Source: Eledone cirrhosa (taxonomy: Eukaryota). Taken from it: a DNA stretch of 64,000 nt. Of the stretch, positions 29,611 to 61,695 are shown piece after piece (the first letter of the stretch is position 1; each line of letters opens with the position of its first letter). Position numbers and translations under genes: made by a program. Location: contig OZ024743.1 of assembly GCA_964016885.1 (NCBI GenBank), positions 286,068,001 through 286,132,000 of the forward strand, given 5' to 3'. The notes beneath the pieces were generated by a model. The model saw only the letters and a program-made list of their open reading frames with translations, did no database searches and was not told the origin of the DNA.

Positions 29611-29734
29611 GTTTACAATTGTTTCAGAGGACAAAATTACAATTCGATCCATAAGATTGAGACCTATCAATATATGAATCAATAGGTTTAAGTGATATTA
29701 AAATCGAACTATGGTTGGACCTCATCTTCAGAAC
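29611..29734 (-). ncRNA. Type I hammerhead ribozyme motif with long stem II
   Basis: - strand: gtt-CTGAAGA-t-GAGG..(~100 nt, self-complementary)..CCTC-t-GAAAC-aatt-GTA-aac. Stem III is the palindrome ACAATTGT. Confidence 0.6.
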
Positions 29735-30325
29735 GTAAAAACAAATTTCAAAAATGCATGTCATTTATGGAGGAAACACTTGTTTTGCATCTTTTACGCA
29801 TTGAGGACACTGTCCTCTTCACTACTGATTTATAATTCTCACAAACTAATCTCTAATCTATCCTTCTTGATTGGATTGTACACTTACATTTGATCATCGT
29901 CATCATCATCATCATCGTTTAACGTCCATCTTCCACGCTAGCATGGGTTTGGATGTATATATATATTATAAAGAGTCGGGACCCTTGTCGTTTCAACAGT
30001 TAGTTTCAGAACTAGCTGTTGAACTGGCAAGAACTCAGCCGTCGGAGTCCCAACTCTTTATAATATAACCACACTCAACTACTCCAAGTATCGAGTACTC
30101 TGTTGAGTAATGGTCTATAATGGTTTAACCAGTTTCAAACTGAATCCATCCTGATAAATATATGTATATATATATATATATATGCAGAGGTTATATTTAA
30201 TTTGTTGGGATTCAACAAGCTTAAAAATGTTTATAACTGATATAAAGCACTCAACAGTTAGCTCCAACCGTTAAGGTTGTCTTTTTTCCGGGTATGTCAA
30301 TATTTATTTATAAAACAAATCTGTA

Positions 30326-30387
30326 TTTTATCTGATGAAAGCACACCATAATTTGCCTTGGTTGCCCTTGAAATATATATAATAAAA
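30326..30387 (+). ncRNA. Type I hammerhead ribozyme motif
   Basis: ttttat-CTGATGA-aag..acca...tggt..ctt-GAAA-tatatata-ataaaa. 6-bp stem I and (AT)n palindromic stem III. Same family as 58683. Confidence 0.65.
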
Positions 30388-30444
30388 TAATTATGGTTTT
30401 ATAAATATAGTTTCCATTTATTAATATATTGCATATATATATAT

Positions 30445-30755
30445 AAGGTGCATGGCTTGGTGGTTAGAGCATTGGGTTTGCAACTGAGAGATTGTGACTA
30501 GGTGATGCGTTGTGTCCTCAAGCAAGACACTTTATTTCACATTGCTCCAGCTTACTCAGCTGTAGAAGTGAGTTGCGACGTCACTGGTGCCAAGCTGTAT
30601 CGGCCATTGCCTTTCCCTTGGACAACATTAGTGGTGTGGAGAGGGGAGACTTGTATGCATGGGCGACAGCTGGTCTTTCACAAACCTTGCCCAGGCTTGT
30701 GTCTAGGAGGGAACTTTCTAGGTGCAAAACCATGGTCATTAGTGATCAATGGAGG
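30445..30755 (+). mobile_element. tRNA-derived CORE-like SINE
   Basis: tggcttggtggttagagc A box, core gtgtcctcaagcaagacactttatttcacattgctccag..actcagctg. Related copies at ~31335-31480, ~36980-37090, ~48180-48420 (-) and ~48665-48780. Confidence 0.7.
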
Positions 30756-30771
30756 TGGGTGAGGTGGGGAC

Positions 30772-30826
<55 letters not shown>

Positions 30827-31979
30827 AAATATTCCTTAATATTCCTTGACTTTATCAACTGGAAAATGTACGCAATCAAATATAAACCAATACGAAATTA
30901 TTTTTCTTATTATTCCTTAATATGCGTATGCATCTCTTACCCACCGAAGTTGTTAAAATACCACGAGGATGTATAAAGATAGCACTTGTTTCTGTAACAT
31001 TGGTCGTTCTTATTCTTTTCCCCAGAGTACATTCTGAAGACACACCTTCGGTGGAAGAGGTCGTTTCTTTGCTTTAGCAATAACACTGATTACCTGTAAA
31101 CCACTTTTTCAGTTTTCATTAGAATTGTTGTTTAGATCCTTTTGAACAGACTTATGACCATCCTGTCAATTTGTATATCTAACTTTGGGAACATGACTGC
31201 TATTTCTAGCAGGCTTACACGGTGGCCCGATGTTCTGTTGATGTTATTGTTTAGTCCTAAATCAATTCTTATAAAGCATTCAGCCATAACAATTCCGTCT
31301 TTTTAGGGGTATAAGACGAGATTATGAAATGTATTGGAGGCACATGGCTTAGTGGTTAGAGCATAGGCCTTGCAATCGAAAGGTTGTGAGTTCAATTCTC
31401 AGACCGGGTGATGTGTTGTTTCCTTGAGCAAGATATTTTATTTCACATTGCTCCAGTTTACTCAGCTGTAGAAATGAGATGATAGGGACTGAGGTCCATA
31501 TCATTCCACTGCAAAGTGGTCGTGGAGGTGCCACGGCAAAAAAGCACCCAGCACTCACTGTAAATGAGGTTGGTGTTAGGAAGGGCATCCAGCTGTAGAA
31601 ATCAAGCCAGAATCAGTTCCCATCCCACCCTTGCAAGTAGGGAAAAAGCGGACGTAAAATGAAATGATGATGATGATGATGATTCTCTTATATAAAGAAG
31701 TGATTTCTCTTATATAAAGAAGTGATTTGGAGGCTCCCATGTAAAATGAGAAAACATGACAAATATGTTTAAGGACAACTAATTTTGGTAACATCACATT
31801 ACTAATAGAGGGGTTTGTCTGAAACGTTAAATATTTCTTCTTTTTTGCTCTGTTTGTTGTATTTTCTCCTTGTTGCAGGCAGACCACTAAGCCCTCCTAA
31901 TTCTGACTGAAATGGAACAAATTTCAATGAGCAACTACGTTCGTTTAGCACCGCGTTTGTAGCAGTCCACTTCCGCGAG

Positions 31980-32034
31980 ATGGCTGTTGACACAAGAGAA
32001 TTTTATGTCAAAATATCGTCTCCTACTGTTGATA
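31980..32034 (+). CDS. PDE9-N-terminus-like small protein, exon 1
   Basis: ATG in a CpG-containing patch, MAVDTREFYVKISSPTVD, phase-1 donor A|gtgagt. Confidence 0.75.
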
Positions 32035-32229
32035 GTGAGTCTTTTTCAATTATAATTTAAATTCCAAGCATATTTAAACCATTTATTATTTCAGTAAAAC
32101 TTAACTAAATTTGAAATTCTTAAAATTATTTAACTATCTCTCTATATTTTTATACACACAATTGCCTTCAACTACCCTTTAAATTTCTTTTTCTATTTTG
32201 ATTTTGTAAGTTTTTATTTGATGGATCTT

Positions 32230-33085
32230 TGAGAAATTGTGGGAATAATGCCAAGAGGTGTATGATTGCTTTGTAGACATCGAAAAGGCATACGATCGCA
32301 TTTTACGAACCTACCACAGTATGAATTTTTGGTCTTGCTGTGCTGCGTCCTAGGTGAAAACCACATCGTTCATCAGCTAGCTTGAACTCGACATTCTCCC
32401 TACATCTCTTTGCCAGGAGACCCCACTATAATTGGAGAAATCTTTCTTGCCTCCATTTTTGAAAATTGGTACTATAACTCCCGATTACCGTTGCTTAGGT
32501 GTCTAATCTTCATACATAGGATTGACATAAACAGTCGGGTTGTAAGTAGTATTTTGATTGGTGGGTGTAGGATCAGTTAGTTGGAATTTACTGACGACAC
32601 GATGTTATTTAACTCTTCAGAAAGTGATCTCTGACATGCATATGATAGGTTTGCTGCTGAGTGCTGCACGACAGGAATGAAAATCAGTGCTGCAAAGAAT
32701 GAGACGCTCGAAAGCAGCTAAAATGGGGTTCCTTCAAAGAGTTTTTGGAGTAACATTTTACTCGATAGTGTGTATAGCTGAGAGATTTGAGTCACTCCGG
32801 GTAGAGATGCTACTTCTCCGAATTTTAAAGATCACAGCTCCAATATTACGGGCATGTGGTTAGAATGTCTCAGGAAAAAATTAAGGGACAGATTTTTCAG
32901 TCAAAACCAACTGGCAGGAGACTCAGGGGTAAACCCTGAGCAAGATGGTTGGATAACATCAATGAGCTCGGCTGGTCCTGCTTGGGGATCCAGTCAGACC
33001 AATTGGAGATTATTGCTTCTGACATGATCTGCTGGAAGGTGTTTAAGGACCCACAACCTACCCAGGAATAAGTGGGCAAAGAAGA
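32230..33085 (+). mobile_element. Degenerate RTE-like LINE fragment(s) in intron 1
   Basis: FVDIEKAYDR, EFTDDT..L, GMKISAAK, LQYYGHVVRM, GRRLRGKP..RWLDNI remnants with stops. Confidence 0.55.
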
Positions 33086-34112
33086 GAAGTGTTTACCTGT
33101 TAATAGCAGAGAAGAAAAATATTAACTAATTGAGTACATATAATTTTGAAAATATTTAATATTTTGGAATGAAGACATTGTTTATAAAGTTATATATAGC
33201 AGATGTTAATCTTTGGTACTTACAAAATGGATTGGTAAAAATGTTCATGCTATCCAATGGCTTTTCAAAAACTACTTATTAATAAGCAAAAATAATAGCA
33301 TCAGCTGTTGTAGTTGTCATTGTGCCCAACCGATACCCATTGGCATCAAATTTGGTGTTACAGTGAAAAGATAATTTCTTTTGATGAGTCAGACAGCCAA
33401 TGTTTTGTTAAGGAGAGAATATATTCAATTGAGTCCACCTCAATGTGTCACTACATATGCCTAGAGCCACTATCACTAAAACAAACAAGAAATGTCCTGT
33501 GAGATAGATACAATCTCATCGGAAACTGGCTTAATTTACACAGATGTGAGCCACAACTACATGTTACTAATTGTTATGTATGTATATTAGCAACTCAAGA
33601 GCAAAGCAATATTTTAAATCTGAACACTGAGGTACAAAGTAAACTATAGTAAAGCATTCTGTCTGGTACCTTCAATTGTATTATCACCACTAGTTTACAT
33701 ATTAAAGAAGATACTACTCAACATACAGAGGACAAGCATACCAATCTATTGACCCACTATAATTTTGGAAATATTTAATATACTGGAATAAAGATATTGT
33801 TTATAGCGTAATATATAAAAGAAGTTAATCTTGGGTACTTGCTTGGTATCTTTTACAATATGGATTGGTAAAAATTCTCACGCTATATAGTTTTTATCAT
33901 TTATTGAAAGTCAGATATTTTTTACAGAATTTTCAATTACAACGCCTTTATCTTGTTGCATATTGTAAAAATGACTTTCCTTCTTTCACTGCAGAAGGAT
34001 CATTAACCTCTGTCTTCTGGTACTTTCACTTTCAAAAAAGTAAGAGATAAGGAATTTAAAAAAAAATTATTCAGATACTTTCTCTTAATAGTTTTATGCT
34101 ATTCTCTTTCAG

Positions 34113-34228
34113 TCAGCCATTCCAAGACAGTCCAGTGTATCACTGTTGACTCCAACTGTTCTTTTCGTAATGTTCAGCGTAAGGTTTTGGAGGCAATTGA
34201 CATTGATAGTAAGTCCCATGTCATCAAG
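34113..34228 (+). CDS. PDE9-N-terminus-like small protein, exon 2
   Basis: ttctctttcag| ... AAG|gtaagg. Encodes ISHSKTVQCITVDSNCSFRNVQRKVLEAIDIDSKSHVIK. Confidence 0.8.
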
Positions 34229-37200
34229 GTAAGGAAATCATCTGCATTCATTCCTCCACTAAATTTCATTACTAGACATATTGGACAACACCATCATAAG
34301 TACTTCAGCATGTATATAGACTGGATATGGTATGAGAAATGAGGAGGGATCAAGGTTCTTGGATTTCTCTGATGCAAATGACCTAACCATTTGTAACTCT
34401 AACAGCAGAAAACTAGATTGCTACCTTATCCCTCAAGAAAACACACAAGCCAAATAGACTCATATAGGTATTTTGGAGAGGGAAGGTATGGAAACTGCAA
34501 GATCCCTCGGCCAGATATAGGTTAAAAAAAGTAAGAGGAATTGACGAAAAGAAGAAGATAGAGATAAATAACATAGGGGATGGAGATTAGTGAGTTGCGT
34601 ACTGAAAGGGGCAGGGTGTTGCAATGTTACAAGAGCAGAAGGGATCAAATGACATTTTCTCTCTATTGGTAATTTTGAAGGGACAAGTTGTGTTTTCAAG
34701 GGTTGCATGTGAAACTTTAATTTCTGTCTAGAGTTTAGATGAGTATGATTCTTGGGTTACACAAGTAGATAGAGAGACAGCCAACAAGGACCACCCAAGG
34801 TAAGTGATTTTGTGTTTTCTACCACAGAAGACTACTGGGAGTTTTTTCGAGGCAATTCGTGAGCAATAGACTAGATTTGTGGATGGTTTATGATTCCAAC
34901 CACACGGGTGCTGATGAAATGGTACAATTAGAGCCATAGAAGTTAAAAGACATGTTCCAAAGCATTGGAATAAAGCAGAGTGCAAGAAACAATATCAGAT
35001 AACTAGACATCAAATATACGTAACATGGAGAGAAGCTGAAAATATCAAGCTTGCCATGTTCTGCAGTGAGAAGATCAAAGGCATGGAGTGTTCCATATTG
35101 CAAAGAAGTGCTTTAGTGGGAATCAAGATATCATTATGGCAAAGTGTGTGAAGAATGAAAGTGGTGTACATATTTTGGGGAAGAGTTTATCCTAAGTAGG
35201 CCCAACAGCTATATGGGTAAATGCACAATTAGTCCTTATGTTACCAAACCGTCTCAGGTTCTATGATACAAAGTTATTTGTTTTAAAGTGTTTATATTTC
35301 TCTAAAAATATTCCATCATTATTTTATGTAAGAAACTTTGTTATGTTCCCCAAAAATAGCTTAATAATGAGAAAGTTAGTTATATTACTAAATCTTTCCA
35401 AATTCTTGATTATTTTCAAAATGATTGAAAAATCATAGACAGTGTCTTTCATTGGAAATATAGTAACAAAAGGGTTAAGGATTTAAAAATTGAGCAAACT
35501 GGACCGTTATGTATAGTTGTTGAGGATATGCTAGTCACTTGTATAATCAGCCAGGTAGTTCAGGAAGTTGCTATACTTAATGATTAGCATAGCATCATCA
35601 TCATCACCTGCAAAAGGGCAAAAGAGATGCTCTAGGAAGAAGCAACTATAGAAACATTAAACTGATGAACCATGCTATGAAAGTAACATAGTTATCATTA
35701 CAAGTAGCTTAGATGAGATGTAGTTTGGGTTTGTGTCAGACATGGTATGATTGATTCTCTCTTAGTGTGACAGCTACAACTAAGAGGAAGCCACTATACC
35801 TAGCATTCATTGATCTGGAGAAGGGTTTTGATAGGTTACTGTTTATTGCTAAGAAATTTAGGTGTAGAAGAATGGCTTGTGAGAGACATGTACAGAGCTG
35901 CCTGCAAACTGAGAGTAGGTAGGTATTTATTTAGTTCTCATAACTGAATATGTTGAAGACTTAGAGAAGGAATGCCAAACTTAGAATGAAGACATCTCAT
36001 AGTAAATCTAATGAAGACGAATGCTTAGGATTCTACTTCCATCCTGGATGAAGTCATGCTCAATATGCAGAAAAGGAGTGGGTAGGTACTCTGTATGATA
36101 CACTCAATGAAAACTATGGATGCACAAGAGGTGTAGTATGATCACAGGCAAGCTGACAGAGGAGAACTTTATAGCAGATGTAGATGAGTAATTAATGAAG
36201 GCTACCTAGAAGTTTGGAAAGTAATTAGATGAGCATGCTCTATTGAATGTATAATATTAATGTGTACATATAAATTTAGAGAAAAGCTATGTATAAGAGG
36301 ATATCAACTGTGGAGAGATGGCTGCACTGGCACAAACATATGATGCATATGGAGGATAGGTAAAGAAGTGCCAAGTAATTAAAGTGGAAGTAACCTGCAG
36401 AAAGAGAAGACTTTGGAAGAAATGGTGGAGGCTGATCTCAAATGGTGAGAGGCTATGCTGAAGAAGGCGCATCCAACCCATTAAGCATGGAAAAATGGAT
36501 GTAAAATGCTGCTGCTGATGATTATGTACATTACTTTAGTTGCTTCATTTGAAGCTTGGAAATTAATTGAATCCAACTAAAAAGTCAGGACCATTGTGCA
36601 TTAGTAATTTTCAAAAATTTTCAAAAAACCCAGCAATATCTTATTCTAATAATTCCCCATTCAACTAAATATGAATGGTGTGTATTAGTAAGTTTCTTTT
36701 CAGTAACATTATTTTAATATCCACTTTGCCATGTCAACATGCCATGCATTGCTCTGCAGTATAGCATATTGCAATTTTTATGTGCCTGGGAGGTTAAAAA
36801 TATATTCAAATTGACATGAAAAAAAAAAAGAAATACTAATTGGTGATTAGTGATGTTTAATAACTTAGTTTAAAATTTTATTTTATTGCCTTTCTTTGTC
36901 ACTGCCATTTGTCAAAACATCTTAACTCACCACCTCTTCATATGTCTTCTTTATTCTTCCTCTGTCACAGCACTTTTCATTTGGCCTAGTGGTTTGAGTA
37001 TTATGTTCAAGATAATAAGGTTGTAAGTTTAATTCCTGGATTGGGCATTAGGTTGTATTCTTGAGCAAGATACTTCATTTAATGTTGCTTTTATGACTGA
37101 AACACCCAAGAAACCTCTTTTGAGATGCAACCTTATAGTAGGCCAGTTAAACTTACATAGGTGTGAGCTGTTACATTTTTTTAATTGCTTGTATAAACTA

Positions 37201-37293
37201 TTGAATATCAACAATATCAGGTACTAGTAATGTTCTACCATTATCAATGTATATTTTAATTGAAACCATATTATTGTTGTTTTCTTTTTTCAG

Positions 37294-37358
37294 GTGCGAA
37301 ACAGTAGTGGGTCGGTGTTTACTCTAACTGGAAAAGTGCCTTCAAATACTTCTGATCA
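37294..37358 (+). CDS. PDE9-N-terminus-like small protein, exon 3
   Basis: tttttttcag| VRNSSGSVFTLTGKVPSNTSD, CA|gtatgt. Phase-compatible with neighbours. Confidence 0.8.
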
Positions 37359-38269
37359 GTATGTAATCCACATTGAAGTGGATAGTTTTCACATTCTACC
37401 ATTCTTTTAACTTATCTTCTATGATTAAAACTATTATCATATTATAAATATCATACATTATGTGTGTGTATGTATCATCATTTTATATCTACTTTTCATG
37501 CTGGCATGGGTCGAATGGGTTGTTACATTTTTGAGTCAATTCTTATTACTGCTTTCTTAGATGGATTAGAGGACCACATGTTGCTCATACTTTCCATTTT
37601 TGGCATGGATTCTTTAACTGATTTCCCTATGGAGTGTACTGGGTATATTTTATTATTGCACCAACACTTGAGAGGTTTCCTTACTCTCTGCATGACTAAA
37701 GAGTCATGGGAATGTGGGTCTTATATACATAATTGCTTTTATTGAATCTGGCCATTCAGCTATTCATGCCAATCACCAATTTTGTAATTTTCTCAGACCC
37801 ACGAAAACTTGGCATCTTTTTAGAGATAGCCTTTACTCACCTTGTCATAACTAGGTTGTGAGAGTTTTCTTGAGAGCTAACAGTGTCACCCATTGCTCCA
37901 TCTCCCCTATTATCTTATGACTATAATAGCTGTACAATAAAGGTTGCAAGGGGTATACATTTCTAAGATTGTAGGCAGGAGGAGGGATTGGATATATACA
38001 GAATTAATGCTATCCTTCTTTATGTGGGTAACATTGAGCAATGGATATGGGAGTGGGTGGGGTGGTGGGAATAATAAAGCAGTGGTATTTCTAGTTTTGT
38101 AGGCAGTATGGTCAAGGGAATTGGAGAGGAAGAAGAAAAGTGATTTGGATAGTTAAGGGAGTAAAATGGTGGGTACAGTAGATTAAGAGAAGGCTTAACA
38201 TGAATGTATAGGGTGCCCTGCTTGCAGCAGTGGATGGGTCTTTTCTAGCACTAGAAGCTGCCAATTCTC

Positions 38270-38775
38270 ACAGTCTTTAGTCATCTTGGTTATGAGGCTT
38301 AGCTTCTTGATCTCAGTTTTCACCACAAGGTCTATCTCTTCCATGTGTTCCATCCACCCCGAGAGTGTGGCACTGTTTCATGGAACTGATATTCTCCATG
38401 CACATCACGTATCAAAACCAGTGTAGCCTTCCCTCTTGTATACTACAACTGATTTCTTTTAAACCTATTTTCCTTCTCAACTCATTTGTTTTCCTTCATT
38501 CATGCATGCTAACATTACATATCTAGCAAAGCACAGTCACTGTAGATTTTCTGCAATCAAGGCCCATGTTAAACTTCCATGCAACATTACAGTTTGTATA
38601 CAAGAATCGTATAGTCTACTTTTCAATCTGAGAGAAAACCTTTTTGTTGCCAACAACAACTTCCTGAATGTTTTCCACCCTGTTTTTATCTTGACTACTA
38701 TGCTTTCTGTAGATTCACCTCCAGCACTAATGAGATCACCTAGATTACAGTAGCTATTAACTACCTCCATTGAAG
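38270..38775 (-). mobile_element. Degenerate RTE-clade LINE fragment
   Basis: MEVVNSYCNLGDLISAGG..GWKTFRKLL..LRLKSRLYDSCIQTVMLHGS.TW. Confidence 0.7.
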
Positions 38776-39307
38776 TAGTCTTGATGATGATACATTACCA
38801 TAAGATGGTAATCATAAGTAATTAGTTCATCTTGTTTACCTAAATGATTTTTTTTTTATTAAGCATGAAACTTAAATAAAGGAGAGTCAAATGGTTGAAG
38901 GTATGTCTGCGTGATTATCTGGATTTGACCCCACTGTGTGGCACCTTGGCAAGTGTCTTCTACCATAGTCTTGAATTGACCAATCTTTTTTCTGTTGTAG
39001 ATGAAAACAGTATAGGGGTCTGTTGTATGAATGTGTGTGTCTGTCTTTCACCTGTGTATGATATCGCTGAGAAAAACGAAAGATTGCAGCTTTTAAATAA
39101 CAATACCACGTGTGATATATATTCTATAGCAAGTTACACAGACAAACCCGTCACCCACTCCATCATAAATGTAGTGAACCACTGGTTGGACCATTGGAAT
39201 ATTGGAAACCTATAACTAATGATGTTATTGTTTATCAAATGCAATAAATAAATGTTATATAATGATTTTCTAGATTTGATAAGGATTTTTATTTTTTCTT
39301 CTACTAG

Positions 39308-39345
39308 ACCTTACAGTGTTGAAGTAATACCATATTACTATCATG
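39308..39345 (+). CDS. PDE9-N-terminus-like small protein, exon 4 (38 nt)
   Basis: ttttcttctactag| (Q)PYSVEVIPYYYH G|gtaagt. Phase 2 to phase 1. Confidence 0.75.
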
Positions 39346-41013: not shown

Positions 41014-41090
41014 CGCAACCATTATCCTTTGTCCAAAAAGATCATCTGAGATTGTTTATTAATGCAAAATTAAAAGCTTTTACAAATAGA
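41014..41090 (+). CDS. PDE9-N-terminus-like small protein, exon 5
   Basis: ttttatttccag| AQPLSFVQKDHLRLFINAKLKAFTNR |gtaagt. Confidence 0.8.
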
Positions 41091-41524: not shown

Positions 41525-42805
41525 TAATAATAATGACATATTGTGTACAGTGCTCAGGTGCACTTCAACTCATCAAAAAGTGTATGTATAGTACATAGGG
41601 TAATGCACAAACGTCAGGAAAATGAACAGTGCATGAGTCATGATATACACGTGTGCATGTGTATGGAAGGGGTACATCAGGTGTAGTTTTGGCGAATTTT
41701 GGGAAGCATGAGGGTTTTAAAGGTGTCTTGGCAGCTAACAACTGACGCAGGCAGTTTGTTCCATGCTTCAGCAACTCTGAGCGTGAAAAAATGTTTCCGA
41801 AAGTCATGGGAGCTCTGCTGTTTTCTGATTTTGTAGGCATGTCCACGTGTGTTAGACACATGGAGATCAAAAAGGTGCTCAGGGTTGTTGTTGGCGAGAT
41901 GGTTAATAACTTTGTGGGTGTTTACCAAGTCCATTGCCAGACGTCGGAGCTTCAATGAATCCATGCCCAGGGAAGCAAGGCGTTCAGAGTATGGTAGGTG
42001 TCTGATGGAGGGTATGCGCTTGGTTGCACGTCTCTGAACAGTTTCCAGGAGGTCAATGTTCTGAGCAAGATAGGGGTTCCAGACTGATGATGTGAATTCC
42101 AAGTGTGGTCGTACCACAGCTGTATACAGCTTTAAATAGATGGCTGGAGAGCGGCTAACAAAGGTCTTGCTGAATGATGCCAAGACACCCTCGGCCTTCT
42201 TGACAATCTTAGAGACATGCTTTGTCCAACGCAAATCGCTGCTGACAATAATGCCCAGGTCACGTTCACAAGAGGACTTCTTGATATCAGTTTGTGGAGG
42301 GAGTATGTGGACGCTGGATTTTTCCTCCCAAAATGCATGGTGGTACACTTGTCCACAGCCAGCTTCAGTTGCCAGTCTGATCCATTGCTGCATTGTGTCC
42401 AGGTATGATCGTAGGAAAGAGTTGTAGATTTCAGGATCAGTCCTTTTGATTTCAAGGTACAGCTTGATGTCATCTGCATATTTCAGTACCGTGGCATTCT
42501 TTAAGTTGGCATCTATGTCATTAATATATGCCACAAACAAAAGGGGACCAAGAACAGATCCCTGTGGTACACCAGATGACATCTCATATGGTGAAGAATG
42601 CTGTCCTAGAACCGTGACTACCTCTTTTCGGCTGAGAATGAAGGATTTGAACCAGTTAAAAAGATCATCCCTCACACCCATTGCAGAGAGTTTTACCATA
42701 AGTCTTTTGTGTGGCACAGAATTAAAAGCCTTAGCGAAGTCAAGGTAAACAACATCCACCCATGAGCCTCTGTCAGTGATCCGGGTAATGTCTTCAAGGA
42801 ACATC
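41525..42805 (-). mobile_element. CR1/L2-group LINE, 5'-truncated, antisense in intron 5
   Basis: High identity to ~17680-18962. YLDFAKAF, GVPQGSVLGP and YADD present, with two compensating small deletions. Confidence 0.95.
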
Positions 42806-43419
42806 AATTTTTCCACAGTTGCATAGGTTAGATAGGTCGTTCACGCTGGGAGGCAAGTCTGGCCAGGGTTAGACATGTGTTGCACCTTGCTCTAGCGAGG
42901 ACTGTAATTTGGCTGGGTATATTACAGCTGGATGCCCTTCCTAACACCAACCATGTTTCTGTAATACAAATCCTCCTCAAACATCCTTGTCGCAGTACTG
43001 GCAGGCATTCAGGTCAGGTGCGAAATGGCTTGCCTGAAATCCAGTATGTATCTGCTTCAGGATCCAGCAACAATTGGTGCCATTGACCTCTGCAACTGCA
43101 AATAGCTTACGCAAGTATCTGCCTTCTCTGAAATCCAAGACACACTTGTCTTGATATTTAGTGGTTTCCTTTGTTGGTATTCCTACTGCTATTGTTGACA
43201 TTCAACAGGAAGAAGAGCTGCTATGAATCACATTATCCCAATATGTGTATGCTTGTGGCTGGAGACTGCCTGTGAAAATCAGATCATCATCTCCATAATG
43301 AGACTGTAATCATGAATCTACATACACTACACATCAGAATACAAACAATGCTGTGCATCAATGGGAGCCAACATACTTGTTCTTCAAACAGAACAAGTGG
43401 TAATTATGCAAGCTGAATT

Positions 43420-46658: not shown

Positions 46659-46718
<60 letters not shown>

Positions 46719-47547
46719 GAGATACATATAATAAACATGAGTATATGTGTATGTGTGTATATATATATACATATATATTTTTCCAGATCCATGCTAGCGT
46801 GGAAAATGAACATTAAACGATGATGATGATATATACATACACATATGCACATCCCAGTTTTAGCAAAAGGTACAGCATATCCATATCCATATCCCTGTGT
46901 ATTTTAAGAAACTACTAAAAGAGTTGGCATCAGGAAAGATACCGGGCATAAAATACTGTCCCAAAAAGTCCTCCAACAATGATATGTATATTATATGTAT
47001 ATATAAAAAAAATATGTGTACATATAAATATGTCTGTGTGCGTGTGTGTATTTATTAATCATATACACGATATTACATAATAGGTAACAATTGATTTCAC
47101 ACTCCAAAAGAAAACTTACATGATGCTAACACCATCATTATATATTTATTTATATATGTATATAGCAGGGGAAAATGAATGTTGATGATGATGATATATA
47201 TATGTATTAATATAAGCCAGTATTGCACCAAGAAAAATAAAACGGTGTAAAAAGATTATGAAGAATTTATTTGCTTTGACATGTTTCTGTGTCTATTATA
47301 AATTGTCTACATATGCTGACTACAATATATATTGTTCAATCATATGCAATACTTAATTATTTATTACACTTCATCAGAAAGCCTATAGTAAATTCAACTA
47401 TTTTCTATGCGATATATATATATATAGAGAGAGAGATGTGTATGTATATATGTAGCCTTCTGCTTAAGCTCCATCCACATGTGCGTTTACACTTGATGTT
47501 GAATGTATGGTCACTGGTCGATATATGTGTGTTTAGTAAAACATCTA

Positions 47548-47642
47548 TCTACTGATGATGGGTTCTGATGTCTTTATAGTGCCTGTTATTTAATAATGGT
47601 AATTGGCATTATTTCTCTTCAATCCTGAAACAGCTGTATAGA
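47548..47642 (+). ncRNA. Type I hammerhead ribozyme motif with enlarged stem-loop II
   Basis: tcta-CTGATGA-t-ggg...cct-GAAAC-agct-GTA-taga. Stem III is the palindrome ACAGCTGT. Confidence 0.6.
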
Positions 47643-47717
47643 CTAGAGGAATGTACTCCTGTTGGCCTGTGCATTTGCCAGATAATATGATTAATATTTT
47701 ATGTATTGATCCAAATA

Positions 47718-47758
<41 letters not shown>

Positions 47759-48071: not shown

Positions 48072-48102
<31 letters not shown>

Positions 48103-51100
48103 ATACACATACACTTATATATATGTATGTGTTGGATCTCCATCAGTTTCAACGACGAATGTTTAAACAACAGAACAACCTGTTTGTGAAATTAATGTAT
48201 AAGTAGCTGAGCATTCCACTGACACATATATCTTTAATATAGTTCTCAGGGAGATTCAGGTGACTCTTTGAATTACAGGTACAACTAATTTTTGTCAGCT
48301 AATTGGATTGAAACAATGAAATAAAATGTCTTTGCACAAGGATACAACATGCCACCTGGGCTAGTAATTGAACTCACGACCTTACTACTGTGAGCCTAAC
48401 ACCCTAGCCACTAAGTCACAAGCCATCTCAAAAGTTTAGATCCTTATAGTACCTAGGTTTCTCAAGCAATCACCCAACTCAGTACTAACTAGACTGGATG
48501 TTGCTTAATTTTGGTGGTTCGATGAGAATTAGTGTTTTCAACCTGATATAGTCATAAACACACATATATATATTAAACTCATGCACACATATACATATTA
48601 TATATATGTACACATGTATATATATTAAACACACATACACATATGGCAGGCTTCCACATAGTGAAGGCATGTGGCCTAGTGGTTAAAATGATAGACTCAC
48701 AAACATAAGGTTATGGATTTGATTCCTAGACCAAGGGGTACATTGTGTTCTTGAGCAAAATATTTTATTTCACTTTGCTCCTTCTGTCAGGTGTTGCAAC
48801 TGGAAGATAGTATCACCAATGAAAAGATCTATGGTAATACTGCTTCTTTGGTTTGAAATGACAATCAGTTCCATTCCTTTGCACACATTTTCTATTTACT
48901 AAATTTCACAGACAAGGCATTGATCAGTTCGAAGCTACAGTAGAAAATACTTGCTCCAGGATCAAACCTGAAGCTACATGGTTGTGAAGAGAGCTTTTAG
49001 CCCCGTAGCAATGCTTACGCCTTTCAAGTGGCCAGTCCATTATATAATGAGTGTTTTTGTGTGCATGTATATATATATATATATATAAGTGGTTACACAA
49101 CAGTGTATATTACCTTCCAGTGTTCTACCACTATATATATATAAATGTGCAAAAATAGTTACAGTTTATATTATAGAAATAACACCCAGATGATTATACA
49201 TTTATAGTTAGTACAACAGATTCATGAAGTTACTATAATGATGACATACTTATAACAATTAGATAAAGAAAATACAAGTATTTAGGTTCTCAAATTGTAT
49301 TTACACATTCCTGTAGTATAATTTCTATAGTCAAGCTCACTTTGGCACAGAGCACTATTTTACAAAGTGTACTGCAGTACCCATTATAAACAAAATACTA
49401 AGTATCTCATTCAAAAGAAAACAAATTATTTTCCTTAGGTTACTGTGTCTGCATGGACAAGGGCAACAACAAAATTACCTAAGGGTCTGTAAATTCCTGT
49501 ATGAGTGGTAGTCATCAACTAAGACCATTATAGAGAAAGACTGTCTTGTGGTATATGTTGATGGGAGAGAACAATGGTTAACAGTAGGGGTGATGACAGG
49601 GACTTAATTAATAGAGCAGTAGAGAGAGGCTAGATAGGAGTATACTGGGCATGAAGACCACAAATTTTTATGACTGTTTTACCTTGATACCATAGATGAT
49701 TGTGTCTACTCTAACACAGCATGACACCAAACAATGTGGTTCTTTGTCATCTCTATTATGAGGTTTAGCTACTCTATGTTAGAAATACAAAATAAATTAT
49801 GAGTTCTAATTAATTCAATTTCAGTTGCTAATCACAGCTGAAGAATAGAGACAATGTACATATTACATATGTATGTGTGTGTGAGTGTGTCTGTCTGTTT
49901 GTATGTATTCGTTAGCTGTGAATAAAGACTAAAATTGTATAAATTGGAATTTATTTTACATCATATATTTTTTTCTGTTTCTAACATGTTGAGAAACCTG
50001 GGAATGTATGTTGATCTTTTTTGTGATATTTTTGGAAAGTGTATAGATTAAAAAAAATAATTTGTCCACTTCTGGCAAAAAAATTATTTTAATTAATTTA
50101 TCTTTTTTTTCCTATCAGTTATCTTGCCAGGATAAATTAATGATCTGTATTCAAACAATTTCACTTCATTTATGTTGTTAATGTACTTGAAAACAAAACA
50201 AAACAAAAACAATTTTGCACTATCTCTTTTCTTTTTGTGGGGAAAACATACCTGCTGTTGACAACAGTTAATAAATTTGTGTCAGATCTCTTTAATGGAA
50301 ATATTGATGAGTTGTAGTGCACCTGAGCACTATACACAATAATTCTATTATATTATTATTATTATTTTATATTATGGTAGCTAAATGAAATAGATGTTAT
50401 GTAAACAAATCTCTTTTCAAAGAAATCAATAACTGATGAGTTTAGGGAAATGAGGTGAGTGTTTTGGTGTTAAAAGTAATGCAGGCAAAATCAGATTGTA
50501 TTGTCATTCAGAGAAAATAGTGAATGAGGTTTAAGCAATAAAATACTGTTGGTTTGAGGACATTGGTAACAATTAAGAATTTAGGATGAAGCAAGGTACA
50601 GCATCAAACTGAGAGCAACAATTGTCCTTGTAAATGTTATCAGTTTTAGTATATATAAAGGAACATTGAAATGATACTAATGATTGTGTAACAGTGTAAT
50701 GGTATCAGTGTCAGTAGTGTATATTCAAAGCTACTCATACACTTTTATACTATTCTGTTCTTATGTGTTCTACATGTTCACACATATATGACATTCATTT
50801 TATTAAACAATGTTCATATTTATCTTGTAATATACTATTCAGTTTGTATAGAATATTATAGAATATCATGCATGCTTAGTCAAACTGGTTAAAGAAATTA
50901 ATTATTGTTTAATGTCCAGTTTTCCATGCTGGCATGGATAACCATAAACTTCATTAATTTATTGTGAATCAAATAACACAAAGGGAAAATCTGGAGTTTA
51001 TTCCTGTATTTTGTTTCTTTCTTTTTTTAGGCATTAGGCATTGATACAAATGCTAGCCTGTAGCAGATTTTTGATCACGGGAGAATTCAAGCTCACCATT

Positions 51101-54100: not shown

Positions 54101-55027
54101 TATCGGAGAGCGGGGGGTAATTAGTTTGTGATCTTCAGCGTCAGTAACAGAACCTGGGTCTGACGCTAAATTCACCAGGTTCTCACTGGAGAACGTATCG
54201 CTGCAAGGTCGCATCTCAGATGCGAGGCTCACCACCTCGGAACGTGTTGTTTGTGATACATCCATTATTACGGAATAAATATTATGATTAAAATGTTTCT
54301 TTCATAGCGTTACCTCCCTTATACTAGTTATGAAAATTCACGAAGAAATTTATCTCTAGTAAAGCGGAAATTGATTCTGAGTTTCCATTGCCGATTGTTA
54401 TCATTTCGTTTATATTGTTCTTAGTCAAATCATGCCGAAAGGTCGACTTTGCTTTCCCCCCATCCCAGGAATCATAAAATAAGTCCCAGTTAAGTAACTG
54501 AGGGGCGATTCAATCGATTTTTCCTTCACACACAAATAAATGACCTTGTGCAAAAATTTGAAACCTTTATTATTATCGTTGAAAAGGGCGTGTCGAACAA
54601 AATATTCGCGAATATTCAGTTACGACCCTAAATGGTTTGAGTTTAAATCTCATCGAAGTCAATTTAGACTTCCATCCTTTCAAGTGTCGATAAAATGAAA
54701 TACCAGTGAAGTACAGTGGTTGATGAATTTTATTCCCACCCTAACCCCCCAACCACCACAAAAAAATCTGGGTATATGCATATGTTAAAAATAATAATAA
54801 TTATTGTTATTGAAAAGGCTAGCAAAGTCGGTAAATCATTATAGAAAAATAAATATTTGAAATATTTAGTTATGTCTCGTTAGGTTTCTTTAGTTAAAAA
54901 ATGCCGGCGATATAGACTTTGCTTTTTCATTCCATTGACAGCTGATAAATAAAACCCAGTCAAGAACTGTAGTAGATTTAATCACCCCTGCCCTCTTTCA
55001 CACAAGTTGGAATCGCAGACTAATATA

Positions 55028-55195
55028 ATTGTTTCTACTTTTGGCACAAGGCCAGCAAATTACCCAGTACATTACTGGTACTTTATTTTATCAACCCCGT
55101 AAGGATGAAAGGCAAAGTTAACCTCGCACACTAATATAATAATTGTTTCTTGTAAGGATGAAAGGCAAAGTCAACCTCGGCGGGATTTGAACTCA
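55028..55195 (-). mobile_element. tRNA-derived SINE fragments (Meta-domain-like); older copies at ~54430-55000
   Basis: Reverse-complement match to 25363-25548. Confidence 0.7.
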
Positions 55196-56720
55196 TATAA
55201 TAATAGTAATAATAAATTGTTATTGCACCATTCTCCTATATAACTTTACATCTTGTGTCTAAGAAATCAATAAGGTAGCGAATTGGTTGAGTCTTTAGAG
55301 TGGTGGATAGGAATACATTGTCATATTTCTTTGTACTCCCTGCGCTCCAAAGTCAACTTTGCCTTCATCCTCTCGGGATCGATAAAAACACAAGTCAAAG
55401 CACCTTCTTCCTTCCTTTCTTATTTATTTGGTTATCTGAATCGGCTACTTTGTGGTGTGTAAAGGGTCGTGGGAGACAATTCAGAGTGTCCCTTTCTCCA
55501 TTTCTGGTGAAAGCGTAAGCGAGGTGGGGGTTAAGCGACCTCTTCTAATCGAAAATCTATGTTATTTAAATCGTCCAAGGAAGGGATGACGTGCAGTACA
55601 GCACGGAACGATCTAAAAAGTAATCAATATTTTAACGAGCACAGCAGTGCTGTGCTATCTATTTAATATATAAGTGACTTGGGCTATTTGAAAATTATCT
55701 TGGTCATAGGACACATAATACTGTTGGTGACGCAATATGAACTAATCAACTATATATATATATATATAGATCGACTCAGTAACTGTTTTAAGGAAAGAAG
55801 AAAAGGTAGAATTTCACTGTCCTGACATTTCTTGTCAAGGTGACCTTTATGTAAATAACAGTTTCTTACTTAGTTACGAAACTTGAGTATTTATAACGGG
55901 CTGTGTCAAGAGTATTAGTGGCCTAACACTGAATAAGCGAAAAAGGGTCCTTGACTGTGATCGCCGGGTATGGAAACTTACTCCAACGATAATTGTTGCC
56001 ACTCTACTGTATTAGAGACAATGATAATGATAATGCACTGATGATGATGATCAGTTGCACTAGTAGCAGTAGCAGCAGCAGCGTCTTTGTACAATACAAA
56101 AACATTACGATAAAATACAATACAGAATCACTGACACACACACACACTTATACATGCATACATACACACACATTCCAGAGCTGTATTTGTTTGGCATGGG
56201 ATTTGATTTGAGATCGTTTGCTGCGACTAAAACAGTGATGTAGTATTAAACACAGAAACATACTTATATTCATTTTTTTACTTTATTATAATTTTTAGAA
56301 TTATTTTTCGGCATCAAAGTTTCCAGCGTACATCTATCTAGATCATGGTCACCGACATTCTACTTTACAGTATGACATATATTCACACATAGATAGATAT
56401 GTAGATAAAATAAGTCCCTGTCAACTATTATGAATAGTTATTCGATATACTTCTTCCCCAAGTATGTGATCAATGACAATTTTAGAAACAAATTATTAAG
56501 TAAAGTAAGTAAAGAGACACATTTCGAAATAGATAGAAAAAAAAAGACACGGTCAGTTGAGGTCTTATGATATACACTATTATTTTGTGCTAATAACAAC
56601 CACAAGTGGCCAGGAAGTAGATAGACATTTTTTTTGTAGGACTGCGAAGAAAAGGGAGGAAAAAAGTTGCTTATTTTACTAAATTAATGTCATGCCAACT
56701 GTTTTTAGTTCAGCAGTACG

Positions 56721-58002
56721 ACACTTCTCTCCATACCAGGGAAGGTCTATTGTCTGGTGATCCTGAACCGCATGCGTGGCATGGTAGACCAGGAACTGCG
56801 AGAACAACAGGCAGGGTTCCGACCAAAACGTTCCTGTGCAGAGCAGATCTTTACGCTACGCCGCATCATTGAGAGGTACAACGAATTCCAGAGACCCCTC
56901 GCCATCAGTTTCATCGATTTCTCCAAAGCATTCGATAGCATTCATCGACCGTCGCTCTGGAGCATCATGCATGAGTATGGTCTACCCCAGAAAGTCATTT
57001 CGGCAATCAAACAGATTTACGCAAACTCCAAGTGCTGCATACGGACAGAGAATGGTTACAGTGACTGGTTTGAGGTGGTTACTGGCGTGCGTCAAGGTCG
57101 CTCTCTCTCTCCAATTCTCTTTGCCATAGCCATTGACTGGGTACTAAGAAGAGCGTCTAAAGACCAGGGTATATCTTGGGTGGGAGAGCAAAAGTTGTCT
57201 GACCTGGACTTTGCGGACGATATTGCTGCACTTGCAGAGAGCACAGCTGACTTGCAAATCATTGTGAACAATATCAATGTCGAAGTAGGAAGCGTAGGTC
57301 TCAATATCAGTGCCAAGAAGACCAAAAGCATGTTATCAGGGACACACCCACCACCAACCAGTGTCTTCATTGAACAGGGGGAGGTTGAGATAGTGGACAA
57401 CTTCACCTACCTAGGAAGCTCCATTAACAATGAGGGCACCATGGACAGTGAACTGCAATGTGGAATGGGAAAGGCTTCAGCAGCATTTAACCAGCTTGAC
57501 AAGATCTAGAAGAGCAGGAAGTTCACCCTCAAAACAAAGATGAGATTCTACAACAGCAACGTGCTGTCCACACTCTTGTACGGAAGTGAAACATGGCACC
57601 TTAAGACCAGCCAAGAGAAGAAGTTGGACGCATTCGATTCCAGATGTCTGCGAAAGATCCTGGGGATTAAATGGAGTGACCATGTAACAAACCAGGAAGT
57701 CAGGAACCGCACCGACCAGCAGCTAGTCTCTTCTACTATCTCCAAGCGACGCCTGGGCTGGTTTGGACACGCTTTGAGACTTCCCCCCGGAGAGACTGGC
57801 GAACCAAGTACTTAAATGGAGCCCGCAGAGAAGCAGACGGAGAGGGCGACCCAAAAGGAGCTGGCGCCAGACAGTTGAGAGGGACCTGCGAACGACAAAC
57901 AGACAATGGCGGGACGCTGTGCAACTGGCTGCTGACCGAACGCGATGGAACACTATGATTGCCTCATGCGTCGCAAGATGCGGGAGCTTCTGAGTCTGAG
58001 TG
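56721..58002 (+). mobile_element. Young 5'-truncated RTE-clade LINE with 6-bp TSD
   Basis: TLLSIPGK, QAGFRPKRSC, FIDFSKAFDSI, GVRQG, DLDFADD, FTYLGS, LLYGSETW, WFGH, RGRPK. One in-frame TAG (57507) and one frameshift (~57785). (CTGAGT)-type tail. AGTACG flanks at 56715-56720 and 58003-58008. Confidence 0.92.
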
Positions 58003-58214
58003 AGTACGTCAGTTGGCTGACAGCGCAGACGATTCATTTTTTTTATTGCATCTTTTTATTTACTTATTTTTATTGTAACGGACTTTAGACCAAGTGAGAA
58101 ATGGTAGAAGGAGGGGCAAAGAGTGAAACAGAGAAAGACAGACGCACACGCGCACGAATAACTCCTAACATATATTTTCACACTTCTATCTAGAAACCTA
58201 ACTATCTATCTATA

Positions 58215-58595
58215 CATTCTTTTTTTCAAATACCACTTTGGAAGAAGAATCAGGATGGAGAGAGAGGTGCTGTACCCCAGCAAGTTTTATGAAAGGTGGG
58301 TGAAAGTGGCGAGAATGGCCCGAGTGAATGGGCCTTCTCTCTATATCAGCCTGTAAGTTGAGGAAAAGGAGGAGGAGAGGAAAGGAGTACAAACTCTTCG
58401 TACTCCTGGAGATGAGGGTTGCACATTTTTTCGGGGGTATGTGTTACCCATATAAACTGTCTCCCCCTATTGGGGAAAATCGACTAACTTTTTAAATTAC
58501 ATTTGTGATAACATTTTACACGTTTTTATTGTATGTAAACTTCCCCCTTTGTATTTGTCCCCTTCTTTTGTGCCCCTGTGGCTAATAAAGAAACA
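58215..58595 (+). mobile_element. Tx1/L1-like LINE 3' end
   Basis: FFKYHFGRRIRMEREVLYPSKFYERWVKVARM plus 3' UTR ending gctaataaagaaa. Homolog inverted at 59282-59850. Confidence 0.6.
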
Positions 58596-58682
58596 TATCT
58601 ATACATATATTATTCATATATTATTCAAAATATTAACAAATGAAGATATTCACATAATCAAAATATATGCTTTATTATATAT

Positions 58683-58744
58683 TTTATCTGACGAGGACGT
58701 ACTGAAAAAACAACACAGTACCTTCGAAATATATATATAATAAA
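58683..58744 (+). ncRNA. Type I hammerhead ribozyme motif inside a 65-bp perfect inverted repeat
   Basis: tttat-CTGACGA-GGACGTACTG-loop-CAGTACCTTC-GAAA-tatatatata-ataaa. Stem II has 9 of 10 pairs, cleavage triplet AUA. Confidence 0.75.
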
Positions 58745-59048
58745 GCATATATTTTGATTATGTGAATATCTTCATTTGTTAATATTTTGAATAATATTAA
58801 TAACTCCAGGAAAATTTTTCTTGTTGAGTGCTTTTAATCTATTGTAAAACTGTATTCATTGAGTAATCAACGAACCATATTAATCTTTGGTTATATCTAT
58901 ACATATATATGAAATATAAGTGTACAATATATATATATATATATACTAGACTACCATTCTAATATATATATATTGCCTGTACAGGTAATCAAAGTGTGTA
59001 TACATTTTTCGGGGACACCATATATATATATATATATATATATAATAA

Positions 59049-59142
59049 TACCGGGGTCCCTAAAAATGTATACACCATCCTAACAAATAATGCATGTATA
59101 GGCAATCAAAGTGGGTATACATTTTTGGGGGGACAACCTGTA
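59049..59142. mobile_element. Tc1/mariner-like MITE (~90 bp); partial second copy at ~58975-59020
   Basis: TA-ccggggtccctaaaaatgtatacac ... gtatacatttttgggggacaacctg-TA imperfect TIRs. Confidence 0.55.
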
Positions 59143-59281
59143 TATACACAAATATGAACATATATATATATAGAGAAAGTGTGTGCAAGCAAGCAAGCAA
59201 GCAAGCAAGCAATCAAGATCAGAGTTTTAGTAGTATATAGATATATAGATATAGATAGATAGATAGATAGGTAGATAGATA

Positions 59282-59850
59282 TATTTCTTTATTTGCCACA
59301 AGGGCGCACAAGAAAAGGGGACAATACAAAGACACATGCCGGGGATTTTACATACAGTCGTGTAAAAATATTGAAACAATTATAACAATCGAAATCCCCA
59401 ATAGGGGGGAAGCACCACAAATGGGTTGTTTAATACTCCGTCGATAGAACAACCCTCAACTTCGGGAGCGTATTGTGCAAGTGCTCCCTTCTTCCTTTTG
59501 CTCTCTTCTTTAACCTACAGGCTTATAAACAGAGAAGGTCCAATCACTCGGGCCATTTTCGCTTCATTCACCCATCTTTCAGTAAATTTACTGGGGTGAA
59601 GTGCCTCTCTCTCCAGTCTGATTCTCCTTCTAAAGTGATACTTAAAGAAGGGAATCAATTGTTGTCCGGAGAGAAAGGCATCTGTCCTCAGTCCTCTCAA
59701 TCTCGTCCACCATATAACCTCTTTCACCATAGCCACTGTACAGAGGAAAACCGCCTCTCTTTCGTTTTTGAAAGAGGCTCATTGAGAGTGAGGTGGAGTT
59801 CTGCGACGTCGACACGGACGAACTGGGCCTCCTACTTAGACTTACCTATG
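59282..59850 (-). mobile_element. Tx1/L1-like LINE 3' end
   Basis: ORF 59515-59736 KEVIWWTR...FFKYHFRRRIRLERE...FTERWV, polyA-signal tail (tttctttatt on + strand). Confidence 0.65.
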
Positions 59851-59879
59851 ACACTGACTACCTAGACAGCCATGACCTT

Positions 59880-61695
59880 AGACGTTTCTGCCCCAGTAGA
59901 CCCATAAGAGGTAGACCCCCCACCATAACCTCAATGGCAAAAAAGACTCCCATGGGAAGGTAGATTGGGTGGACCAAAGCTATACGGACCCCCCAAACAA
60001 TGATCAGGTAAGAAAAATGATCGCACATGCAATAGGAGCTAGTATCAAAACCACCCTAAAGGGCCACATATTCAAATTCAACGAGAAGATCTACACCCAA
60101 AATGAGGGAGCAGCTATTAGCGTCAGCATAGCTGGTGACGTTGCCAACCTTTTTATGGTATGGTGGGAAAGGAAACTCAAAGATCTCCTTGATGAGAGCT
60201 CCATAGACCTCATCATGTACTCTCGTTACGTAGACAACATCAATATAGTAATAAGGACATCCCCACAAGAGAGTACTAACAAGTTTGATTTAGAACGTAG
60301 CACAATGGAAAACATCCAGCAGATAGCTAATTCCATACACCAGAGTATAACTGTAACTATCGACTACCCTTCCAAACACCCTAACAATAGACTACCTGTA
60401 TTAGACACGGAACTCTGGATTAACACTATAGACGAGAGAGCCCAAATTCTCCACTCACACTATGCTAAACCCATGGCCTCCAAATACCTGATACTCAAAA
60501 ACTCAGCAATGTCCAGTAGTGCTAAGTTTAATATTCTGATCGCAGACTTGGTACGAGTGATGTGCGACCCAACAGAAATGGAAAGACACATCCAACACTT
60601 CATCAACTGCATGCAGTTCTCTGGCTACAACCAAAGAGACAGAATCAGAGTATACGAAGGAGCCACGGAGAAGTATAAGACCCTCATAGAACTGGACATG
60701 AAAGGAATTGGCCCATTATATAGGAGCAAATCATGGAATAGCTTAGATAGGACTAGACATAAGATAGGGAAAGCCACCTCATGGTACGACAACCAGAGAT
60801 ACCAGAGTGTCATGTTTGTGGACGCTACCCCTGGAGGGAAATTAGCTAACCAGTGTAGAAAGGCCCTGAGAAAGACCCACTTAAAGATTAAGGTGGTAGA
60901 AAAGCCAGGAACCACCATAAAATCCCTGATCAGCAAAACCTACCCTTTTAAGAAAACCCACTGTACTAATAGGAAATGTATTATATGTAAAGTAAACCCC
61001 CGGATAAACTGTAAAACTAGAAACGTAGTCTATAGCATAAGATGTACAGAGGGTACTTGCAGAAACATGACAACAACATACATAGGCGAGACAGCTCGTA
61101 GCATAGGTGAAAGGATAGACTAACACTGGCGGGAACTAAACGGACGAAAAAATGGTTCAGTACTATACGAATATGCCAGACATGCCAAACATAGAAATGA
61201 CCCAGCAGATAGGCAAATCAGAGAGGCCAGCGAAATAGAAGTTAGAAGGCCAAGGCTAAACAGAAAAAATGAATGGAATAACAACAACACCCAAACAAAC
61301 AATACTGACCTAAGAGAAGTATAAATAAATAAATAAATACATACACGAGCACAATAACAACAAACACATATAAACACGCACTAGTAAACTAAGATAGAAT
61401 ACAATAACCAATACACAGTCACCCAAACACGAACACACATCAAACACTACACACACACACACACGCAAACGCATGCGCAGAGAAGACAAAAAAAAAATAA
61501 ACAGACTAAATAAAGATGGCATAGGCATACAATACAACGGAAGGAAACATAATAGCACCACTGACGATGTTGCAGATGTGCAACGAAAGAACTTTGTTAG
61601 ACTATATATATGTGTTTGTGTCTATATTGTAACTGTATTTTTGACCGTTGGTCAGTCAATGGTAACATTGAGGACCGAATAAATTAAATTAACCG
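59880..61695 (+). mobile_element. Penelope-like retroelement (RT + Cys-rich linker + GIY-YIG), 5'-truncated and inactivated; probably Naiad-type
   Basis: FKFNEKIYTQNEGAAI, YSRYVDNI (YxDD decayed to DN), LPVLD, FVDATPGG, CxxxxCxxC..C, VVY..YIGETAR. Premature TAA at 61121 is followed in frame by RQIREA..P.LN.K.EW. Hammerhead remnant in the 3' region. Confidence 0.9.
61556..61600 (+). ncRNA. Hammerhead ribozyme motif in Penelope 3' region (stems I/III decayed)
   Basis: CTGACGA-t-GTTGCA-gatg-TGCAAC-GAAA. Perfect stem II, weak stems I and III. Confidence 0.55.

Follow-up and report, generated by a model that had tools for sequence, protein, structure and literature searches.

Hammerhead motifs of Penelope-like elements in Eledone cirrhosa: new families of a known kind within a large estimated population

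The hammerhead ribozymes of Penelope-like elements (PLEs) are described as motifs with a palindromic helix III that occur mostly as single truncated copies, show weak dimer activity, and number 2,000–9,000 per genome (Cervera and De la Pena 2014, PMC4209133). In the Hydra clade of PLEs, Hydra-1_Obim of Octopus bimaculoides, which targets (TA)n, is listed with a hammerhead (Craig et al. 2021, PMC8557442, Files S1, S2), and File S2 of that work includes many Hydra hammerheads in which stem II starts with a U.U and stem III is short and partly self-complementary. In axolotl, 126,247 hammerhead motifs have been counted, and HHR_Amex2, which has a U.U base, is active (Cervera and de la Pena 2020, PMC7229834). 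Dimer cleavage of hammerheads has been reviewed (PMC6765202). For Octopus vulgaris, 30 recently active Penelope families are reported, and hammerheads are unmentioned in the main text (PMC13282606). Here, we describe six hammerhead motifs (A–F) in a stretch of 64,000 nucleotides (nt) from Eledone cirrhosa (assembly GCA_964016885.1, contig OZ024743.1, positions 286,068,001–286,132,000, forward strand), hereafter the window. According to our best explanation, which we hold with a probability of roughly 85%, five of the motifs derive from the pseudo-long terminal repeats (pLTRs) of PLEs and would cut in a pair-dependent manner, where A, D, B, and F belong to the 3′ ends of Hydra-clade PLEs and E ends another PLE, while the sixth, C, is part of a short non-coding repeat that likely borrows the PLE machinery. 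Already published are the self-complementary stem III, the U.U pair that starts stem II, insertion targeted to (TA)n, and a Hydra element from octopus; since the design is known, the finding mostly adds families. The motifs and the insertions that carry them are as follows.

30154..30446, plus strand: family A insertion, with an inverted tail piece (30154–30256), the PLE 3′ end (30260–30439), and (TA)n on both sides
30324..30389, plus strand: hammerhead A, with 8-bp stem I, core 30332–30338, 31-nt stem II, stem III ATATATAT (30373–30380), and predicted cut after 30381
29556..29894, minus strand: family B insertion, with the 3′ end of a 5′-truncated Hydra-type PLE (29556–29776), an inverted distal-tail piece (29776–29894), and adjoining (TA)n
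29611..29734, minus strand: hammerhead B, with 3-bp stem I, core 29731–29725, a rod-like stem II of 99 nt with U.U at its base, stem III ACAATTGT, and predicted cut after 29614
47548..47642, plus strand: hammerhead C, with 4-bp stem I, core 47552–47558, U.U at the base of a 68-nt stem II, and stem III ACAGCTGT
~47457–47719: the family C copy of the window, internally deleted, part of a ~564-nt non-coding unit
58682..58745, plus strand: hammerhead D, with 6-bp stem I, core 58688–58694, 31-nt stem II, and stem III (AT)5
58618..58682, minus strand: inverted copy of the 3′ side of D itself, predicted to form a perfect ~65-bp helix over the cut site
59779..61810, plus strand: family E element, a 5′-truncated PLE with hammerhead E at its end
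59915–61123, plus strand: family E open reading frame (ORF) remnant, with reverse transcriptase (RT) thumb, CX4CxxC linker, and GIY-YIG; YVDN replaces YVDD
61559..61596, plus strand: hammerhead E, in the 3′ pLTR, with core 61561–61567, an extra U and 6-bp stem II (17 nt), immediate stem I of 2 bp, and non-palindromic stem III AGAACT; the motif is identical to the common form of the family
47273..47382, minus strand: hammerhead F, with 5-bp stem I, core 47377–47371, 83-nt stem II with A.A at its base, and stem III ACATGT (ACATATGT in 4 of 10 copies); the element spans 47204–47414

A 1.7-kb (TA)/(TACA) microsatellite (61798–63530) lies directly 3′ of the E element. An “extended stem I” considered for D was rejected, since it is the inverted 5′ piece of the element itself; by the helix with this piece, the D copy of the window is predicted to be masked.

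The type-I core CUGANGA...GAAA...UH is present in all six motifs, the five that had been placed before and F in addition, and stems I and II pair in each of them, although weakly in B (3 bp) and E (2 bp immediate). The window was scanned with a descriptor that demands an exact palindrome in stem III besides the core and pairing in stems I and II, and that was tuned after the motifs had already been seen. It gives five matches (A at 30332, C at 47552, and D at 58688 on the plus strand, B at 29731 and F at 47377 on the minus strand), against a single match in 120 block-shuffled windows together. A stricter first version returned A and D only, and E (61561, plus strand) is recovered only with a 2-bp stem I and mismatches in stem III permitted. 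The preliminary description had given no strand for B. The idea that the minus-strand match at 47377 is fortuitous was dropped, since it belongs to a real family with 946 first-look candidates. An Rfam scan of the window, taken up to E=5, has no hammerhead family among its 126 matches. Of 30 copies each, 26 in A and 27 in D keep an intact core, and in B and C the stem cells are paired at 83–86% compared with 36–53% in slid controls, where the control is biased towards a structure taken from a single member. The G10.1-C11.1 pair is present in D and E, and is replaced by A-U in A, by U.U in B and C, and by A.A in F. The motifs are real hammerhead motifs, for which self-cutting is predicted only in pairs, and they represent new families of a kind already known. 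The preliminary description had proposed several families of PLE-type type-I hammerheads with a self-complementary stem III, and this agrees with what is found at the places it gave, where stem III is self-complementary in A, B, C, and D but not in E.

Searches of the genome gave first-look candidates, which are not copy numbers, for each family (A 260, B 171, C 73, D 1153, E 2079). Among the best matches listed, identity is 97–99% for A, 97–98% for full-length matches of E, 79–94% for B, and 72–91% for C, and for F it is 89–95% among the best 40 of its candidates. The motif at 61556 had been called decayed, which does not apply to E, since its motif recurs unchanged in 22 of 30 copies of the family. 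Nor is a (TA)n microsatellite used as stem III, as had been proposed for A and D. Stem III of A is 8 nt long in 26 of 30 copies, reading ATATATAT in 16 and ATATGTAT in 10, and that of D is 8 nt long in 20 of 30, 10 nt in 9, and 12 nt in 1. In both families, stem III is for the most part a constant palindrome of 8 nt that has a wobble variant and slips occasionally, and not a captured microsatellite.

The assignment of A, D, B, and F to Hydra-clade PLEs comes from longer copies elsewhere in the genome, which carry an RT/endonuclease ORF upstream. For A, walking upstream leads to RT/endonuclease ORFs between inverted pairs of hammerheads. An RT search of the genome gave 36,555 first-look candidates, and in 16 long-frame loci hand-picked from 150 scored matches, an A-type motif is found on the sense strand in 12, one of them with a deleted stem III. 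At such loci, the hammerheads are paired in direct orientation in L341, and in inverted orientation in L335, L337, and L344. In full-length A elements, one hammerhead is located in the upstream pLTR, 193 nt upstream of the AUG, and a second ~1.3–1.9 kb past the stop codon, in a unit of ~3.7 kb (3.7 kb in L341). The ORF of L334 runs over 742 residues from Met to stop, with RT followed by a C-terminal GIY-YIG, and contains the motifs RWR, DKT, CxCX5C, CxxC, and CxH, while CCHH is absent; GIY-YIG and RT-type clusters come out at 0.96–0.98. RWR occupies the position of RWK in the A-type ORFs, which by eye resemble the Hydra-1_Obim protein. Apparently intact 742-residue Hydra-type ORFs with matched pLTR hammerheads are also seen at L333, L335, and L341, in addition to L334 (1475–3700), and the family with these ORFs may still be active.

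As for D, 3 of 30 copies share 1.3 kb of upstream sequence that reaches RT and GIY-YIG fragments, i.e., the endonuclease end. In family B, locus L288 has remnants of RT, linker, and endonuclease upstream on the same strand, and a search with that endonuclease DNA gave 20 loci, of which 6, counting the query locus, have the B motif 1.2–1.6 kb farther downstream. For F, the endonuclease is upstream in 2 of 10 loci. The CxCX5C linker is seen in D and B, and is assigned to F only by similarity. Family E shows, in translation, a CX4CxxC linker and a Cys/His-bearing endonuclease, which can be compared with the Neptune/Nematis-type criterion CX2-5CxxC. Linkage to autonomous PLEs, which had been named as a check, is found for A, B, D, E, and F, all of which connect to RT/endonuclease ORFs. 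The earlier statement that four copies are ORF-less is correct for the copies in the window, but A, B, and D are the 5′-truncated ends of ORF-bearing Hydra-clade PLEs.

Compared with the Hydra-clade PLEs described in PMC8557442, the elements here share the C-terminal GIY-YIG, DKT, the CxCX5C linker, CxxC and CxH, the lack of CCHH, insertion into (TA)n, and a hammerhead near the 3′ end. They differ in the length of the unit (~3.7 kb versus <3 kb, “generally short”), in having RWR instead of RWK, and in stem II, which is 31–99 nt here against ~11–26 nt in the Hydra motifs listed there and ~50 nt in two spike-moss PLE-X motifs; the hammerhead of Hydra-1_Obim differs from all six (PMC8557442). With the metazoan PLE hammerheads of PMC4209133, the motifs have in common a location in pLTRs, an occurrence mostly as single motifs of truncated PLEs, a dimer dependence that is predicted here, pairs on opposite strands, many families per genome, a palindromic loop 3, and, for E, an extra nucleotide before stem II. 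Relative to that set, the motifs here have longer arms, stem III palindromes of 4–10 nt, and the G10.1-C11.1 pair in only 5 of 19 clusters with at least two matches (see below).

The ends of the insertions are consistent with what is known of a PLE from another clade. In 20 of 30 A copies, the 3′ end is positioned at +48 to +58 from the cut site, and in the other 10 of 30 at +151; in full-length A elements, the same tail continues to the AUG at +193. An inverted 5′ piece is found in 21 of 30 A copies, and the end is immediately followed by at least (TA)4 in 26 of 30 A, 22 of 30 D, and 15 of 26 B copies. The uniform end of E at +203 was selected by the query, and lends no independent support. 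Reverse transcription of the Anolis element Poseidon PAc is described to start at two internal sites that define a tail, at an AT-rich target (Frangieh et al. 2024, PMC11167929). As in PAc, the elements end at either of two fixed 3′ points beyond the hammerhead, the tail is optional, and the targets are AT-rich, but the tail here is ~93 nt as compared with 30–40 bp, and the AUG follows the cut by 193 nt, whereas in PAc it precedes the cut (PMC11167929).

We take the five PLE motifs of the window as left by 5′-truncated, often 5′-inverted insertions in (TA)n. By analogy with PAc, the PLE protein would nick AT-rich DNA and start reverse transcription at internal sites downstream of the ribozyme. 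Because any insertion longer than ~150 nt would keep the motif near the start of reverse transcription, a few dozen families could give rise to ~10^5 motifs. In a pLTR-ORF-pLTR transcript, two hammerhead copies may pair through stem III and cut to release a unit-length RNA, probably with help from the protein of the element. Copies that stand alone, as in the window, lack a cis partner, and most of them are probably silent. None of the six motifs folds with a monomer hairpin in stem III. Homodimers through the palindromic stem III of A, B, C, D, and F are predicted at −2.2 to −11.1 kcal/mol, compared with +1.4 kcal/mol for the duplex of E, which is not self-complementary.

Several observations weigh against this explanation. 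The core is intact in only 10 of 32 B copies and 7 of 19 C copies, these being the sets used for conservation and covariation (one near-duplicate and two further sequences were omitted from 35 B matches). Covariation of the whole structure does not exceed that of shuffled alignments in either set, as the observed number of doubly changed pairs is reached by 139 of 500 shuffles for B (32 copies) and the observed number for C by 203 of 500 (19 copies), and RNAalifold finds zero consensus pairs in the B copies. Most B and C copies are dead and decay neutrally. Family E has many near-identical copies despite its non-palindromic stem III and 2-bp immediate stem I, and because it spread with these, dimer cleavage may be unneeded. 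The linkage of F comes from two loci only, the PLE ORFs are not recognised by a Pfam search, nor named by a sequence search of the PDB, and the placement in the Hydra clade was made by motifs and by likeness judged by eye. The core is nonetheless somewhat more conserved than arms and flanks, in contrast to the lack of core conservation that had been named beforehand as a refutation: in B, conservation is 0.93 for the core, 0.85 for the arms, and 0.77–0.82 for the flanks, and in C the values are 0.89, 0.78, and 0.50–0.60, where the flanks include truncation ends.

The least improbable alternative, which we still consider unlikely, is that the motifs no longer cut and persist as structural handles near the start of reverse transcription or as passengers, with the long arms as tolerated insertions. 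The hammerhead of the Anolis element requires protein to cut and is dispensable for insertion in vitro, and zero reads end at its cut site (PMC11167929). Such a situation would agree with the abundance of E in spite of its weak stems, with the covariation results, with arm folds that differ between families, and with short interspersed elements (SINEs) inside the C arm in several copies. However, in 19 clusters with unrelated stems, the core recurs together with paired stems I and II, and in most of them also with a self-complementary stem III. These are features for which the descriptor selects, but the reversed control gives only 3 matches against 36. In addition, the axolotl hammerhead with a U.U at the base of helix II does cut, and better as a dimer (PMC7229834).

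The clusters come from all fetched DNA (1.57 Mb), a set that is biased to the searched families and in which overlaps are counted twice; it contains 204 matches in 38 clusters, of which 19 have at least two matches. Stem II spans 13–99 nt in these 19 clusters, and is at least 50 nt in eight of them. The long arms fold better than shuffled sequences (z −3.2 for B, −4.0 for C, and −2.3 to −7.2 for the eight long clusters), into rods in some families and branched structures in others. Against a function of the arms stand the covariation, RNAalifold, and core-integrity results for B and C given above. A pseudoknot suggested by crossing short inverted matches in the B arm was set aside, as the predicted fold is a simple rod. 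More families with long arms (79–97 nt) are found at L210:3865+, L171, L178, and L254, where the stems are unrelated and some are branched; the group shares either U.U together with ACAATTGT or A.A together with ACACGTGT. A repeat of ~180 nt that resembles a SINE is located within the stem II arm of family C at several separate loci and in both orientations (L088:1589–1770, L225:1915–2095, L082:1596–1776, L089:1588–1764, L240:1194–1374, and L090:1629–1796). It has 41 near-full copies in 600 kb, and 45 matches in the 189 kb of C loci, where overlapping loci are counted repeatedly.

The density of motifs was estimated, for a genome of 3.0 Gb, from 60 stretches of 10 kb taken at even spacing, of which the four largest contigs supplied 40. 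In this independent DNA, a descriptor similar to that of the window scan gives 23 matches in its strict form versus 1 in the reversed control, and 36 versus 3 in its relaxed form. This corresponds to 37–55 motifs per Mb, and an estimated 1.1–1.6 × 10^5 genome-wide (95% ranges 0.7–1.7 and 1.1–2.3 × 10^5), which bears out the very large population that had been inferred at the outset. The same rules give 4 matches in the 64 kb of the window against 2.5–3.8 expected (P 0.23–0.54), and since they miss A and E there, the estimate is an undercount. The high local density claimed earlier is right in that the motifs are present, six rather than five, but a local cluster was rejected, as the density of the window equals the genome average. 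The axolotl genome is about ten times larger than this one, so that the density here would be about tenfold that of axolotl. In PMC4209133, the counts of ~2,000–9,000 per genome compare with the estimated 10^5 here, where the descriptors differ. No genome-wide hammerhead count for an octopus was found in the literature searched, so that the population may be called uncatalogued in this respect, but an octopus Hydra element with a hammerhead is already included in PMC8557442. An estimated ~10^5 motifs escape Rfam, so that the number of ribozymes in genomes of this type is probably much underestimated.

It is tempting to go further and regard this as the densest load of intact-looking ribozymes among the published counts compared (~40–55 per Mb, >10^5), with folded stem II arms of 50–100 nt that evolved repeatedly as protein-docking or switching modules for dimer cleavage, and with family C as a circular-RNA parasite of Hydra elements larger than those described. 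We regard this combination as doubtful. The only unusual traits are the abundance estimate and the long arms, neither of which has a demonstrated function. The Hydra clade has not yet been studied at the bench, within the literature searched, and the intact 742-residue ORFs, the matched pLTR pairs, the series of stem II lengths (13–99 nt), and the stem III variants make the role of PLE hammerheads directly testable.

Another possibility is that the population consists mainly of retrozymes, i.e., short non-coding tandem units with circular RNA that are mobilised in trans. Retrozymes have been described in molluscs (PMC7229834), and C is the only one of the six families that looks non-coding. 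In L083, the stretch that precedes its hammerhead is repeated after it with a period of ~564 nt, and L088 and L225 keep this order; among 61 C loci, some of which overlap, none was found to have a PLE ORF colinear with C. Two Hydra-like protein matches occur in these loci, one reversed and one a fragment of 36 residues, and neither was counted as colinear. Similar to the metazoan non-LTR retrozymes of PMC7229834, family C is non-coding, AT-rich, and arranged head to tail, with a type-I hammerhead, and it shares the U.U base with axolotl HHR_Amex2. It differs from them in the 68-nt arm, in the unit of ~564 nt, which is outside the described monomer range of 170–400 nt, and in occurring as ~1.4-mers or less, without long arrays. 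Family C is also old (72–91% identity), and because of its age, a link to an ORF could have been missed. Since the other five families are linked to ORFs, a population composed mainly of retrozymes is improbable.

Domestication by the host, with the motifs regulating a nearby gene, for instance by cutting the pre-mRNA of a gene with a BTB domain at 15416–16567, is highly improbable. Four of the six motifs are on the strand of this ORF, but the density is that of the genome on average, the copies resemble ordinary members of their families, a helix with its inverted piece is predicted to mask D, and with no further host exon among the 87 frames scanned, an intronic position is not established. 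Finally, chance matches in AT-rich, microsatellite-rich DNA, where AT-rich stems pair readily and about 1 in 12 relaxed matches is expected noise (3 versus 36), can be dismissed with near certainty on the basis of the shuffles (one match per 120 windows), the reversed control, and the family searches, which place all six motifs in multi-copy families with the core in position.

Other features of the window were noted. The ORF with the BTB/POZ domain (15416–16567, E 2.6e-06) is a host ORF, and its other exons were not found among the same frames. An ORF with STPR repeats at 8439–9083 (E 1e-15) is one that we take to be possibly Helitron-derived. On the minus strand, 48441–48559 resembles 5S rRNA (54.5 bits) with many broken pairs, and is either a pseudogene or a 5S-derived SINE. 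Remnants of reverse transcriptases of the long interspersed element type can be read from the translations at 17829–21440, 41677–42840, 56709–57509, and 63530–64000.

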